This document shows positions 2,833 through 35,579 of a stretch of 38,728 bases of DNA, piece after piece. The DNA is from an uncultured Candidatus Saccharibacteria bacterium (GTDB taxonomy: Bacteria; Patescibacteriota; Minisyncoccia; Minisyncoccales; JAGGSE01). The translations under genes were made by a program, and so were the position numbers. The first letter of the stretch is position 1. Each line of letters starts with the position of its first letter. The notes beneath the pieces are model-generated. The model saw only the letters and a list, made by a program, of their open reading frames with translations, was not told the DNA's origin and did not search any database. Location of the stretch: positions 1-38,728 of the forward strand of contig CAZPZY010000002.1 of NCBI GenBank assembly GCA_964591195.1. Direction: 5' to 3'.

Positions 2833-3618
2833 TCAACCAATCAGTTCATCAAAACTTGGCTTTTCTACCTTATAAAACAGACCTATAGGGATTTTATTTT
2901 TGCCGTTTCTATAATCCCATTCCTTGATCTTCTCCTCTGCCTTTGCTTTTGAAAGAGGACCCTTTAGTTCGTAAATCCTTTCTTGATAAAACTGACGATT
3001 GTCAAAGAAGGTAATACAGGGCTGAAGAATTTCCAAAAAAGAAAATCCCTTATGCAAAATTGCCTTTTTGATAAGGTCTTTAAGGTGTTCAACCATTAGG
3101 GCGTATCCCCGGGCAATAAAGGTGGCGCCTGATGCCATCATCAACTCCAACGGGTTAAACGGCTCCTCAACGCTCCCCCCGGGGGTAGAACTTCCCTTAA
3201 ATCCCTTGGGAGAGGTAGCAGTAAATTGAGAAACAGTCAGGGCAAAGTTTCTATTATCGTGGACAAAGACAGCAATATCAGCATTCCGCTTTGCCGCATG
3301 AATTAAATGAGAAATTCCCTCGTCATAAATATCGCCGTCGCCGACAAAGGAAAAAACCCTTAGTTTTGGATTCGCCAGTTTTATCCCCTGAGCCAGAGGC
3401 AATGCCCGGCCATGCAATCCGTAGAAAGAATTCAGATTCAAATAATCAAACATTTTGGCATGGCAACCAATGCCAACAGTAAAAGCAAGGGCTTCTCTTT
3501 TAACTCCTTCTTTTTCCAATTCCAAAACCGCCCTCTTTACTGCCTCCAAAATAGCAAAATTTGTGCACCCCGGGCACCATGTCTTCTCACAATATGTTTC
3601 TAACTGCTTTTTTTTCAT
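2833..3618 (-). CDS. 2-oxoacid:ferredoxin oxidoreductase, beta (TPP-binding) subunit
   Basis: 261 aa. WCPGCTNFAIL..., FVGDGDIYDEG (GDG TPP-binding motif), HDNRNFALT; typical KorB/PorB-type beta subunit. 4-nt overlap with the alpha gene. Substrate not assignable by eye. Confidence 0.85.
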   Translation of the reverse strand: MKKKQLETYCEKTWCPGCTNFAILEAVKRAVLELEKEGVKREALAFTVGIGCHAKMFDYLNLNSFYGLHGRALPLAQGIKLANPKLRVFSFVGDGDIYDEGISHLIHAAKRNADIAVFVHDNRNFALTVSQFTATSPKGFKGSSTPGGSVEEPFNPLELMMASGATFIARGYALMVEHLKDLIKKAILHKGFSFLEILQPCITFFDNRQFYQERIYELKGPLSKAKAEEKIKEWDYRNGKNKIPIGLFYKVEKPSFDELIG

Positions 3619-30264: not shown

Positions 30265-31183
30265 CTCCCTTGAACCAATTCACTGCCTTTTCTAACCCTT
30301 CTTCTAAACCGATATTTGGCTCCCACTTTAAAATCTCTTTTGCTCTTGTTATATTGGGACATCTCCTTATAGGATCATCTTTGGGCAATTCCTTAAACAC
30401 AAATTCTGATTTTGAATTTGTTAGTTTTTTGATTCTCTCTGCTAGTTCTAAAATTGTAATTTCTTTGGGATTTCCTATATTTACAGGGCCTACATAATCA
30501 GAGTCCATTAATTTTATTAAACCCTCTATAGTATCAGAAATATAACAAAAACTTCTAGTTTGTTTACCATCTCCGTATATAGTTATTGGTTCGTTTTTCA
30601 AAGCCTGTTTAATAAAATTTGGAACTACCCTGCCGTCATTTAAATTCATTTTTGGACCGTAGGTATTGAATATTCTCGCAATTCTTATTTCCACGCCATA
30701 CTCTCTGTGAAAATCCATCATTAATGTCTCTCCAATCCTTTTACTCTCGTCATAACAACTCCTCACGCCAATAGGATTAACATTTCCCCAATATTCTTCC
30801 TTTTGAGGATGCTGTAAAGGATTTCCATATACTTCAGAGCTAGAAGTAAATAAAATTTTAGAGTTGAATTCTTTGGCTAAAAGTAATAAATTATAGGTTC
30901 CTAAAGAATTTGTCAAAATCGTCTCAATAGGATATTTTTGATAAAAAACCGGTGAAGCCAGAGAGGCCAAGTGATAAATTTCGTCAAATTCTAAAAAGGG
31001 AATTTTTTGCGAGATATCAGCTTTTATTATTTTCACCTTTAATTCTTTCAAATTTTCTTTTTTCCCAGAAAGAAAATTATCTAAAATTGTAACCTCATTT
31101 CCTTCTTTGACTAGTCTTTCAGTCAAATGAGAACCAATAAATCCTGCTCCTCCAGTAATTAAAATTTTTTTATTTCTTTTCAT
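30251..31183 (-). CDS. UDP-glucuronate decarboxylase (UDP-xylose synthase), extended SDR
   Basis: 310 aa. KILITGGAGFIGSHL, CYDESKRIGETLMMDFHREYGVEIRIARIFNTYGPKM, DGRVVPNFIKQALKNEPITIYGDGKQTRSFCYISD closely follow UXS/ArnA-decarboxylase-type blocks. Confidence 0.8.
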   Translation of the reverse strand: MKRNKKILITGGAGFIGSHLTERLVKEGNEVTILDNFLSGKKENLKELKVKIIKADISQKIPFLEFDEIYHLASLASPVFYQKYPIETILTNSLGTYNLLLLAKEFNSKILFTSSSEVYGNPLQHPQKEEYWGNVNPIGVRSCYDESKRIGETLMMDFHREYGVEIRIARIFNTYGPKMNLNDGRVVPNFIKQALKNEPITIYGDGKQTRSFCYISDTIEGLIKLMDSDYVGPVNIGNPKEITILELAERIKKLTNSKSEFVFKELPKDDPIRRCPNITRAKEILKWEPNIGLEEGLEKAVNWFKGVIFS

Positions 31184-32964: not shown

Positions 32965-33882
32965 TTAAGGGAGATAGCCCCTAAACCATTTTACTGTTTC
33001 CTTTAATCCTTCCTCTAAATTGTATTTTGGCTGCCAGTTAAGTTCTTTTTTTGCTTTGGAATAATCAACTCTCGATTTTATAATTTCTCCTTGACGCAAA
33101 GATTGAAAAATCGGTTTTACTTTTACTTTTAAAATTTTGGAAAGCAACTCTAAGAGATCATTTATGGTAATTTCTTTATTGGTTCCTACATTGTAAATTG
33201 AACTAGATGGAGCATTTAGAGCTAAAATTGCTGCCTTTACTGCATCATCAACATATAAAAAATCTCGCGTTTGTTCTCCATTTCCAAAAATAATCGGTCT
33301 TTCTCCTTTTAAAATTTTATCAATAAAAATTGCCACCACTCCCCCTTCTCCGCCGCTCGATTGCCTTGGTCCATAAATATTGGAATACCTTAAAGAAAGG
33401 AAATCTAAACCCTGGGTTTGAAAATAATTAAGATATTTTTCAATAGCTAATTTAGTAACTGGATAAGGAGCAATTGGATTTAAAGGGTGATTTTCTTTTA
33501 CTGGTAGAGTTTTTGGTTCACCATAAACCCCAACCGAGGAAGCAAAGATAAACTTTTTTACTTTGTATTTTTTACAATTACCTAAAAGATTCAAAGACCC
33601 TAAAATATTGACTTTAGCGTCAGACATCGGATCTTTGACGGATTTTCGGACATCAATCTGAGCAGCAAAATGAAAAACAACCTCTGGCTTTTCTTTTTGA
33701 AAAATTTGAGGAATTTCTGGGTCTTGAATATCAATCTGGTAAAACCTGGCTTTTGGGTTAAGGTTTTCTTTTTTTCCGGTGGACAAATTATCAATAACCA
33801 CAACTTTATGGTCTTCTTTAATTAATCTATCAACTAAATGGCTTCCTATAAACCCTGCCCCACCAGTTACAAGTACTTTCAT
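32965..33882 (-). CDS. NAD-dependent sugar epimerase (GalE-like UDP-hexose 4-epimerase family)
   Basis: 305 aa. MKVLVTGGAGFIGSHLVDRL, SSVGVYG, YPVTKLAIEKYLNYF (YxxxK), GNGEQTRDFLYVDD. Confidence 0.8.
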   Translation of the reverse strand: MKVLVTGGAGFIGSHLVDRLIKEDHKVVVIDNLSTGKKENLNPKARFYQIDIQDPEIPQIFQKEKPEVVFHFAAQIDVRKSVKDPMSDAKVNILGSLNLLGNCKKYKVKKFIFASSVGVYGEPKTLPVKENHPLNPIAPYPVTKLAIEKYLNYFQTQGLDFLSLRYSNIYGPRQSSGGEGGVVAIFIDKILKGERPIIFGNGEQTRDFLYVDDAVKAAILALNAPSSSIYNVGTNKEITINDLLELLSKILKVKVKPIFQSLRQGEIIKSRVDYSKAKKELNWQPKYNLEEGLKETVKWFRGYLP

Positions 33883-33905
33883 ATTTTTAATATTAATTTT
33901 TTATA

Positions 33906-34268
33906 TTAACGAGAACCTACCCGCCCGCCACCTGCCCGCTCGTGCCTTGCAATAGCAGACGGGCGCGAGCCAGCGAGTCGGCTTCTAAGAAATCTCCGAC
34001 CAAAACCAGTTTTGAAATATTTCTCTCTTTTTATTGCCGCCTCTTTAGATAAACAAGCTTCATAATAAATAAGCTTGACAGGTAATCGGTATTTTGTAGA
34101 AAATACCTTACCAGTCTGATGTTCTTTAATTCTTTGCTCAAGATTATTAGTCCAACCAATGTATAACTTCCTATCTTTAAGACTTTCCAATACGTAGGTA
34201 TAGTAGAATTTGGCTCGCTGGCGAGGCGGGCGGGTAAAGCCACATCCACCTGTTACCAATATCCTCAT
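33906..34268 (-). CDS. GIY-YIG nuclease-domain protein (YhbQ/UPF0213-like) translated from an epimerase-type start and flanked by GC-rich inverted repeats
   Basis: Core FYYTYVLESLKDRKLYIGWTNNLEQRIKEHQTGKVFSTKYRLPVKLIYYEACLSKEAAIKREKYFKTGFGRRFL is a GIY-YIG domain. N-terminal MRILVTGGCGF mimics an SDR epimerase start. P/R/G/A-rich ends are translations of the GC-rich repeats 33918-33929/34225-34236 and 33969-33977/34214-34222. Confidence 0.75.
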   Translation of the reverse strand: MRILVTGGCGFTRPPRQRAKFYYTYVLESLKDRKLYIGWTNNLEQRIKEHQTGKVFSTKYRLPVKLIYYEACLSKEAAIKREKYFKTGFGRRFLRSRLAGSRPSAIARHERAGGGRVGSR

Positions 34269-34349
34269 ATTTCACCTAAATAAGGGAAGTTGGTCTAAGA
34301 CAGAAGAGAGACAGGAAATTGCCTAAAGGATAATCAATATCTTCTGATA

Positions 34350-34422
34350 TGCCGGGGCGCAGAATCGAACTGCGACCTTTGCTTTTTCAGAGCAACGTGC
34401 ACACCGTGTACACCACCCCGGC
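34350..34422 (-). tRNA. tRNA-Phe (anticodon GAA), no encoded CCA
   Basis: Hand-folded cloverleaf: acceptor GCCGGGG/CCCCGGC; D-arm GTGT/GCAC with GG in the loop; anticodon stem TTGCT/AGCAA with loop CTGAAAA; T-arm CGCAG-TTCGATT-CTGCG; discriminator A. Confidence 0.9.
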
Positions 34423-34534
34423 CTAATACCCTAACTTCAAATTCTCCCTAATCCTACCAAATTTACTCCATCAGAGCAAGCCCTTGTATAAGCCCACAAC
34501 ATAGCATCTTTTCCTGCACCTCTTTGAGAAACAA

Positions 34535-34588
34535 CCCCTCCCCAATCCCCCCCTCTCAAAGAGAAGGGGGGAGAAAAGAGGAGGGGGT
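34535..34588 (-). terminator. candidate intrinsic terminator: long polypyrimidine/polypurine hairpin downstream of ORF 34638..35579
   Basis: Minus strand: CCCCUCC...CCCCCCUUCUC-UUU-GAGAGGGGGG...GGAGGGG followed by UUGUUUCUC. It lies between the DUF4349-like gene stop and tRNA-Phe. Confidence 0.4.
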
Positions 34589-34637
34589 GAGATTATGTTT
34601 CAACAGATCCGAGTCTGGTTGGTTGTCACTCTCTTCT

Positions 34638-35579
34638 TCATTTAATAAGCCGTCTAAACAATCCCTTCCCCAACCGATAGGACACAAGCACTACTATTCC
34701 TATGATAAAAAGATACACCACTATCTGGACAGTCCTAAAGAACAATTCTATACTCCCTCCAATCAGGTCTTTCAAAATGTCAATCACATTCTCCAACGCT
34801 CTTCTTATTCGGTCCTTGAATTGATCCAAAATATTTTCAGGCAAGATTCTGGGAGACTTCTTTTGCTTAATGCCAATCTGTAAGGTAGCATACTCTCCCC
34901 TTCTTTCCTGAGAAGAAATTTCTCTTTGATAGGTTTTCTCCTTCCTTTTTAACTCTAACTCCTTCTCGGTTACCCTCATTAGCAATTCTATTTTATCTTT
35001 TCCTACAGCCATCTCCCTAATTTCCTCTCTTATTTTTTCGTAATCAGACAAACTCGTTTTTAAAATCTCAAACTCATCCAGCTCTCTTTCAATTGAAATC
35101 CGATAATTTCTTATATTGTAGGATTTTACCTCAAACTTCTTTTTTAACTCCTCAACCAAATCAAGCAGTTTTTCCGAGGGGACCCTTAAGGTCAAATTTA
35201 TCCGGGTATACAAATTAGTGCTTGACTTAGAACTTCTTTCAATATATCCCTGATAGTCTTTAACCAGAGATTTAATTTCAGCAGAATCACCTTCAGCATT
35301 TTTAGATTTTATCTCCACTGAGCCCTCTTTCACCTGTATTTCTCCTCTCCCGCCTGTTTCCCCTTCCTGAAGCCAAGGAGCCCTCAATCCCTTTCCTAAA
35401 GAGGGTGCCATTGGAGTTTCTAAAAACCTACCTGAAGAACGAGGATTCATTATCACGCCTCTTCTGCTTGCCGAAAAAGAACCGATGAAAGTATAAACAA
35501 TCAGGCCTACTATCACTACCCCTATTACAATGCCAACAAAGGCAATTTTATGGGTTTTTATCCATTCTTTTATTCTCAT
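34638..35579 (-). CDS. membrane-anchored coiled-coil protein, DUF4349-like (tentative)
   Basis: 313 aa. N-terminal TM (IAFVGIVIGVVIVGLIVYTFI), central region ...YQGYIERSSKSS...INLTLRVPSEKLLDLVEELKK...YNIRNYRISIE, coiled coil, C-terminal TM (IVVYLFIIGIVVLV). This layout resembles DUF4349. Confidence 0.45.
   Translation of the reverse strand: MRIKEWIKTHKIAFVGIVIGVVIVGLIVYTFIGSFSASRRGVIMNPRSSGRFLETPMAPSLGKGLRAPWLQEGETGGRGEIQVKEGSVEIKSKNAEGDSAEIKSLVKDYQGYIERSSKSSTNLYTRINLTLRVPSEKLLDLVEELKKKFEVKSYNIRNYRISIERELDEFEILKTSLSDYEKIREEIREMAVGKDKIELLMRVTEKELELKRKEKTYQREISSQERRGEYATLQIGIKQKKSPRILPENILDQFKDRIRRALENVIDILKDLIGGSIELFFRTVQIVVYLFIIGIVVLVSYRLGKGLFRRLIK

Follow-up and report, generated by a model that had tools for sequence, protein, structure and literature searches.

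The DNA considered here, a stretch of 38,728 nt from an uncultured Candidatus Saccharibacteria bacterium (contig CAZPZY010000002.1, assembly GCA_964591195.1; in the following "the window"), carries a compact unit between a tRNA-Phe gene and an intact gene of the short-chain dehydrogenase/reductase (SDR) family. The unit consists of a small gene for a GIY-YIG nuclease and of two GC-rich arms that enclose it. The product of the SDR gene matches Pfam Epimerase (E=2.3e-67; NAD-dependent epimerase). Besides the nuclease there is no open reading frame (ORF) in the unit; terminal inverted repeats are present and a transposase is absent.

The original prediction had proposed nested inverted repeats at a jump in GC content, with the nuclease gene in the loop of a long stem, and this anatomy is confirmed. 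Both repeats are exact, one of 12 bp (33918-33929 / 34225-34236) and one of 9 bp (33969-33977 / 34214-34222), and the arms reach a GC content of 0.55-0.65, the window averaging 0.34. When the whole unit is folded as single-stranded DNA, a long-range stem encloses the ORF (z=-4.5). The 12-mer occurs just twice in the window, both times at the arms, with 0.36 occurrences expected even if 2 mismatches are allowed. An Rfam E-value scan of 33600-34700 returned only the tRNA-Phe and chance matches to microRNA (miRNA) models, with no group I or group II intron and no known RNA family that would explain the flanks. Two other GC-rich spots of the window (6566 and 38031) are ordinary coding sequence.

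Table 1. Features of the nuclease unit and its surroundings in the window
Feature	Position	Strand	Remarks
tRNA-Phe	34422..34350	minus	81-nt gap between tRNA-Phe and nuclease ORF
Nuclease ORF, 120 aa	34268..33906	minus	Stop codon 33906-33908; 23-nt gap before SDR gene
Xa, upstream SDR 5' fragment, first part	34235..34268	minus	ATG, codons 1-11 (MRILVTGGCGF) and first base of codon 12
Unit proper, 315 nt, CCCGCCCGCC...GGCGGGCGGG	33920..34234	minus	Left arm, GIY-YIG core and right arm
Left arm	34214..34234	minus	Outer part CCCGCCCGCC at 34225-34234, inner part GCCAGCGAG at 34214-34222; translated as TRPPRQRA
GIY-YIG catalytic core, YYTYVL...RSRL, about 78 aa	33975..34205	minus	Pfam, alignment invariants, tblastn, AlphaFold
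Right arm, inner part CTCGCTGGCTCGCG	33964..33977	minus	Pairs with left inner arm
Nested mini-hairpin, 33 nt, CCCGTCTGCTATTGCAAGGCACGAGCGGGCAGG	33931..33963	minus	Within right arm; most relatives lack it
Right arm, outer part GGCGGGCGGG	33920..33929	minus	Inverted-repeat match
Xb, upstream SDR 5' fragment, second part, TAGGTTCTCGTTAATATAAAAAATTAATATTAAAAAT	33883..33919	minus	Decayed SDR codons 12 to about 24; holds nuclease stop
Intact SDR/epimerase gene, 305 aa	32965..33882	minus	Preserved target copy

The Pfam domain GIY-YIG (PF01541) covers residues 22-89 of the nuclease with a score of 56.5 bits (cut-off 22.6; E=3.6e-15), and the residues Y25, Y36, G38, R46, H50, E70 and E82, invariant in 38 relatives, are all kept in the window protein. 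The AlphaFold model gives residues 21-101 a pLDDT >95 and the topology E-E-H-E-H-H (beta-beta-alpha-beta-alpha-alpha). Both tails, made up of the SDR start and of translated arm DNA, have pLDDT values <65, and the arm-encoded parts are predicted to be unstructured. Beyond the catalytic domain neither Pfam nor the AlphaFold model reveals a DNA-binding domain. The nearest solved structures (Foldseek) are the UPF0213 protein BH0048 and the structure-specific nuclease Slx1, with I-TevI far weaker (E about 0.75), and the match to TIGR01453 is far under the cut-off (19 vs 56 bits). Among described systems the protein recalls SsnA of the Ssn system with its NTS/SRM hairpin repeats. This enzyme binds single-stranded DNA at a hairpin, next to which it cuts (Chenal et al., Nat Commun 2025, PMC11893778). 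An SRM-flanked homologue from Sinorhizobium served as a stand-in for the SsnA sequence, and hhalign matched our family profile to it with 97.8% probability (E=1e-12); the similarity to the UPF0213 proteins YazA of B. subtilis (48 bits vs 45) and BH0048 equals that to the Sinorhizobium homologue.

The suggestion that the GIY-YIG core has no start of its own and borrows one from an epimerase gene is borne out. There is no in-frame ATG, GTG or TTG between the left arm and the core, and the borrowed ATG is therefore the usable start, with the Shine-Dalgarno sequence AGGTGA 5 nt upstream; an alternative in-frame TTG four codons after this ATG is also possible. In several relatives (loci L048, L074, L120 and L127 of our comparison) the nuclease has its own ATG, in a frame other than that of the captured SDR start. 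The window nuclease has lost its own ATG and would be read from the captured ribosome-binding site and start codon, and the fused, start-less ORF is one recurrent variant.

The captured SDR start and the orthologous sites

The bases at the junctions (marked here by a slash) track the local SDR codon: they read TTTA/TAGG in the window, where copy 2 has TTTATAGG, TTTC/TTGG in L005 and TTTT/TCGGGCAC in L003. The unit proper is therefore CCCGCCCGCC...GGCGGGCGGG, inserted in a partial SDR start that extends beyond the unit. Behind the unit, the 37 nt that lead up to the real ATG look at first sight like an AT-rich spacer, but they align with SDR codons 12-24 of L211, the orthologue with an empty site (TAGGTTCTCATCTAGTAGATAGATTAATTAAAGAAGG), and in L058 and L110 the stretch behind the unit relates to the respective SDR gene as it does in the window. 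These alignments show a tandem duplicate of the SDR bases from about -5 to +70, of which copy 1 carries the unit at +34 and has decayed, and copy 2 is the working gene. The insertion site is accordingly the Rossmann-coding site, as originally predicted, but it lies in the decayed 5' duplicate and leaves the working gene intact.

Whether the captured start is a copy of the adjacent galE-like gene, as had been proposed, needs a more cautious answer. The first 33 nt of the ORF and of the adjacent gene do match at 22/33 positions (hand count; MRILVTGGCGF vs MKVLVTGGAGF). However, over the 28 nt before the junction copy 1 of the window matches the local gene at 19/28 positions and unrelated SDR genes at a mean of 19.6/28, so that these bases, taken alone, are the start of an SDR gene and not a demonstrable copy of the adjacent one. 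A local origin is instead suggested by the 37-nt stretch behind the unit and by the orthologues. The two copies are near-identical in young insertions (28/28 in L074, 26/28 in L058, 24/28 in L001); that copy 1 is closer to the local gene than to other SDR genes holds for these only and fails for the window.

The orthologous site occurs in three states. L210, with an SDR gene 98% identical to that of the window, has the same 120-aa ORF and the tRNA-Phe upstream. In L209 (GCA_053938825.1; SDR 94%, flanks ~95% identical) a 50-nt hairpin only is found, together with the same partial start and the same 37-nt remnant; this locus lacks the ORF and the nested hairpin, has a frameshift in the partial start and differs in its upstream neighbour. 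L211 (SDR 78%) represents the empty site, where the previous gene directly adjoins the SDR gene. Another hairpin-only case is L110, in a different SDR gene.

The position right beside tRNA-Phe, to which the original prediction had drawn attention, is correct for the window, but this tRNA is absent upstream in L209 and the neighbourhood is therefore probably incidental. Homology between the window and L209 begins at CAACTTCCCTTATTTAGG (L209 1340-1380 vs window 34275-34310), the stretch with which an 88-aa ORF of L209 ends. In the window tRNA-Phe stands in place of the remainder of this ORF, which places a rearrangement breakpoint ~25 nt upstream of the captured start. We also note an 18-nt direct repeat (14/18) between 34462-34479, just upstream of tRNA-Phe, and 34378-34395 in its anticodon arm. 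The former stretch may be a small tRNA fragment, of interest since the nuclease family usually leaves partial tRNA copies. Further upstream, at 34530-34591 and just 3' of a 313-aa gene (34638..35579, minus strand), lies a long purine/pyrimidine-rich hairpin (CCCCTCCCC...GGAGGGGG) for which Rfam gave weak sub-threshold miRNA-model matches only; it is probably a terminator-like stem that is not related to the GC-rich arms.

Recurrence at SDR genes, tRNA genes and other targets

A protein search found about 25 independent clusters in Patescibacteria metagenomes, with 65-75% identity. All display the pattern M..(I/L)(L/V)VTGGAGF - TRP(H/P)RQRA - core - RLAGSRGGRVG(SN..), and each of the contigs examined has, within the next 10-40 nt, an epimerase gene that possesses a start of its own. 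In 11 sequenced SDR-type loci the insertion is at the same codon, after GGAG(F/Y). Across these loci the host SDRs are 23-54% identical and the nuclease cores 57-77%; such distant hosts belong to different subfamilies, and the same codon was therefore colonised many times. The unit is thus not single-copy and has a clear target-site pattern, and the same-codon recurrence together with the three site states argues for the proposed compact selfish unit of nuclease and inverted repeats, which is possibly mobile. A scan of a genome collection with a 20-mer from the right arm gave mostly chance matches in high-GC genomes (Streptomyces and others), with ~8 of 120 loci relevant.

The wider family was sampled as 80 loci, picked by the nuclease core alone from >529 relatives found; clustering at 50% yields 7749 representatives. 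The usual partner is a tRNA gene, downstream of the nuclease and not upstream: in 49 of the 80 loci a same-strand tRNA gene starts <=200 nt from the nuclease stop codon, usually <=20 nt. In ~30 of these 49 an upstream hairpin cleanly bisects a partial 5' copy of the tRNA, with positions N and N+1 contiguous across it, followed by 12-40 more nt, the nuclease ORF and the intact tRNA. The insertion points range over positions 6-23, with several different points per tRNA species. We also considered that the element carries a whole spare tRNA as cargo. The general plan of the family begins with a partial 5' copy of a conserved gene that a hairpin bisects; the nuclease ORF lies in the hairpin loop or directly behind this copy, and the intact gene comes last. 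No target-site duplication was found in the window or in the SDR-type and tRNA-type loci, where the flanks are the contiguous target positions N and N+1.

Other targets are protein genes. In L128 the unit sits in the start of a GT4 glycosyltransferase gene, with copies 50/53 identical. In genes of the GxxExxY/PD-(D/E)XK type it is found at the codons of the E-x-K motif (L178, L186, L187, L188; ..ATTG/TAGAGATCAAAGCC, coding for IIVEIKA) or at HKALG/PGLLES (L205), and these five insertions are simple, without a target duplicate. One explanation is that in essential genes only those insertions survive that are accompanied by a duplicate. L171 (~2870-3330) holds two complete tandem units, each of partial tRNA, hairpin and nuclease ORF, with a repeat that matches at 93/93 nt; a renewed insertion into the intact copy would produce such an arrangement, and so would unequal crossover. 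Carriage by phages finds no backing, with one protein relative and one DNA match in 2.9 million viral contigs. The lone nuclease relative on a viral contig (L214, 147-377; IMGVR_UViG_3300027819_000412) has 70% identity, and the contig may be a misclassified one from the candidate phyla radiation (CPR).

The hairpins are closely tied to the nuclease. Of the 69 hairpins in the 80-locus sample, 62 are no more than 260 nt away from a nuclease ORF. This supports the earlier idea that the repeats are the nuclease's own element. Mini-constructs and solo hairpins fold better than shuffled sequences (z -2.5 to -5.8). One pair of the 9-bp inner repeat shows compensatory change between loci, being A-T in the window and four other loci, T-A in L003 and C-G in L074, with an A.C mismatch in two loci. 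Among 48 distinct complete hairpins (L127-L206) the naive 9-bp pairing register displays no covariation, while a register shifted by 4 nt has T-A replacing C-G at two pairs. We regard this covariation as suggestive and not as proof, the hairpin sequences being related and some perhaps misoriented. The variants CCCGCCTGC...GCGGGCAGG keep Watson-Crick pairing in the 4-nt-shifted register only. The arms are built of tandem CCCG units, and the stem may therefore slip between registers.

Both orientations of the hairpin relative to the ORF occur among the tRNA-type loci. The nested 33-nt mini-hairpin of the window, which forms its own sub-stem, is 31/33 identical to a solo hairpin (L178:2692), and nested hairpins are found at the same spot in L201, L204 and L205. 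Solo hairpins are also met within protein genes. In L007 (2772-2960 and 3968-4012) three GC-rich ones lie in frame in two adjacent GT4 glycosyltransferase genes, e.g., VIYPP[ATRASSLAMRAGPP]VQN, and further in-frame cases are L132:2236 (45 nt) and L163:4240 (36 nt).

Spread of the element and competing explanations

The region belongs to a large family of patescibacterial selfish elements, each of which combines the gene for a single-domain GIY-YIG protein of ~78 aa with a cognate GC-rich hairpin. These elements are probably spread by host recombination. With the intact SDR gene only 37 nt past the unit, the host loses nothing. By analogy with Ssn and Slx1-type enzymes, the nuclease would recognise the stem formed by the two arms in single-stranded DNA and nick at the stem base. 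The break would fall between two direct copies of conserved host sequence, namely the partial copy and the intact gene, and recombination between them would excise a circle of unit, remnant and 5' segment, which could reinsert by a single crossover in the conserved motif of other genomes or paralogues. Equivalently, the two copies could act as homology arms for copying. Such a process would resemble Campbell-type integration, or homing via flanking homology, without a DNA-binding domain that reads sequence. A circle or a tandem unit would carry a junction from copy 2 to the left arm (ATGAAAGTACTTGTAACTGGTGGGGCAGGGTTTA/CCCGCCCGCC), and a hybrid empty site would join the start of copy 1 to ATAGGAAGCCAT. 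Solo hairpins would be ORF-less derivatives of the unit, and the promoter, the ribosome-binding site and, in the window, the start codon that drive the nuclease would be those of the host.

Several points weigh against this explanation. The mechanism of spread, with its cleavage, excision and circle formation, is inferred in its entirety. GIY-YIG enzymes are hydrolytic and cannot themselves join strands, and the proposed mechanism does not explain how a new target first comes to be duplicated. A strand-specific, Ssn-like cut with one set role is hard to reconcile with the variable orientation of the hairpins. Searched as a regular expression, the published SRM consensus (HGTCWY..YYVSBRH..WNVSBRG..RNCYNB) has 0 matches in the window, whereas the Sinorhizobium control locus is matched. 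There is just one copy of the unit in the 38.7-kb window, and the Rossmann-coding site of a second SDR gene on the minus strand (~31100-31160, about 31156; MKRNKKILITGGAGFIGSHLTERL...), 2.7 kb from the nuclease gene, is intact and uninserted. Finally, the window insertion appears old, to judge from 11/33 differences between its two SDR starts and from its being shared with a lineage that has a 94% identical SDR gene, and this copy may no longer be mobile.

It is possible, if unlikely, that the family constitutes a new class of mobile elements whose homing is guided by structure and not by sequence. After DNA uptake or during recombination, filled and empty strands of a conserved gene would pair and the insert would be extruded as a stem closed by its arms; an Slx1- or Ssn-like nuclease would nick at the junction of this stem, and repair would convert the empty site. 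If true, this would explain how one enzyme of 78 aa serves dozens of unrelated targets (tRNAs, Rossmann codons, catalytic-motif codons), and the partial 5' duplicate would be the surviving form of such insertions in essential genes.

We doubt that the protein is a classical free-standing homing endonuclease, which would cut the double-stranded Rossmann-coding sequence (GGNGGNGCNGGNTTYATHGG) of empty alleles and be copied in by break repair; co-conversion or one-sided repair would then have left the partial SDR copy as a by-product. The GIY-YIG fold is classic for homing endonucleases, and in fungal mitochondria GIY-YIG ORFs lie in frame with host genes beside duplicated gene ends, as Paquin et al. 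reportedly described in 1994. The use of exactly the same codon in diverged SDR paralogues and of catalytic-motif codons in GxxExxY genes, as well as the existence of both filled and empty states, would fit such an enzyme, and T4 SegB acts in a tRNA gene cluster (PMC2330249). However, intact targets remain 60 nt from the nuclease gene (copy 2) and in a second SDR gene of the window, so that an enzyme specific for this sequence would attack the genome that carries it. The nuclease consists, moreover, of a catalytic domain of ~78 aa alone, without a DNA-binding domain, and is closer in structure to Slx1/UPF0213 than to I-TevI. Nucleases that are 60-77% identical occur at unrelated targets, i.e., tRNAs at positions 6-23 and SDR, GT4 and GxxExxY genes.

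A domesticated, host-serving system of the Ssn type, which would modulate the uptake or recombination of single-stranded DNA and have no present mobility, with the SDR fragment as the fossil of an old insertion, seems quite improbable to us. The age of the window copy and its vertical sharing with close relatives agree with this explanation, as do the strong conservation of the core and the very large size of the family, and Ssn/NTS affects transformation in Neisseria (PMC11893778). Yet the ORF was lost without replacement in the 94% sister lineage (L209), the hairpins gather at the nuclease gene and not around other genes, and the repeated independent colonisation of new targets, the tandem units of L171 and the nested hairpins indicate ongoing spread. 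Highly improbable is an element acting at the RNA level, in which the paired arms would be processed in the manner of an RNase III substrate to free the nuclease mRNA from the host message, or would belong to an insert that is bypassed or behaves like an intron. In its favour, the arms are part of the ORF's transcript and pair into a strong stem, and GIY-YIG-encoding non-intron insertions are known from CPR ribosomal RNA (rRNA) genes (PMC11270868), where stems are typically processed. Against it, the flanks match no Rfam family and no group I or II intron, and the complete start of the host gene downstream leaves nothing to be spliced. Hairpins also point either way with respect to transcription, and some stand in frame within protein genes.

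Known systems and significance for Patescibacteria

An element family of this kind is apparently described nowhere in the literature we found, and our literature searches returned no description of a hairpin-wrapped nuclease combined with a partial target copy. A survey of 2024 recorded the insertions in CPR rRNA genes without further analysis (PMC11270868). The closest described system is Ssn (cd10448), to which the unit is likened by analogy, the similarity of its nuclease to UPF0213 proteins (cd10456) being equal. The two have in common a single-domain GIY-YIG protein of about 80-95 aa and a gene flanked by GC-rich, hairpin-forming repeats that also occur solo, some of our relatives having complete hairpins upstream and/or downstream. 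Ssn also works with a hairpin split over two strands, and the authors remark on a resemblance of its locus to insertion sequences (PMC11893778). A hairpin made from two half-sites corresponds to the geometry of the two arms in the window. In contrast to Ssn, whose gene lies between two complete hairpins, the gene is here inside one hairpin. The units described here further occupy the conserved 5' ends of genes together with a partial target duplicate, which is not reported for Ssn, and some of their ORFs are fused to the host start codon.

Other systems share single traits with the family. Free-standing GIY-YIG homing genes (T4 Seg, fungal mitochondrial) likewise insert recurrently at conserved sites of conserved genes and have filled and empty alleles, and the mobile ORFs of fungal mitochondria also combine an in-frame fusion to a host gene end with a displaced partial copy of that end. 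Those homing genes, however, possess a DNA-binding domain and destroy their target on insertion, whereas the present units lack such a domain, leave an intact copy adjacent, duplicate the 5' and not the 3' end and carry a terminal hairpin. Rickettsia palindromic elements and REP/BIME with RAYT or IS200/IS605 are comparable as short GC-rich palindromes in an AT-rich genome, some of them in frame in protein genes (here L007, L132 and L163), and the association of the hairpins with a dedicated nuclease gene and insertion without target-site duplication are further points in common. Unlike these, the hairpins are here concentrated at the nuclease gene and not dispersed, and the enzyme is a hydrolytic GIY-YIG and not an HUH/Y1 transposase, so that strand transfer must be the host's. 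Integrative elements that restore gene ends (tRNA-gene islands, phage 21 in icd) keep a full working copy with a partial direct repeat on the other side as well; the element considered here has, in contrast, no integrase and a size of ~0.3 kb, and again it is the 5' and not the 3' end that is duplicated.

For genome annotation in Patescibacteria the family is a hazard, as it gives rise to chimeric ORFs that join an epimerase start to a nuclease, to incomplete copies of tRNAs and genes, and to GC-rich inserts that stay in frame, all of them easily mis-annotated. The paired sets of nuclease and hairpin are candidate programmable tools for single-stranded DNA. Hairpin-associated nucleases of the Ssn type were recognised only in 2025, with their mobility left as a hypothesis, and the present family provides a natural test of the idea that they resemble insertion sequences. 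Its insertion sites are defined, its alleles are filled, empty or hold a solo hairpin, copies occur both nested and in tandem, and essential genes are colonised repeatedly in a non-lethal way. It also suggests that movement may be possible without transposase or integrase, by means of a minimal nuclease and a stem that use conserved host sequence as homology.

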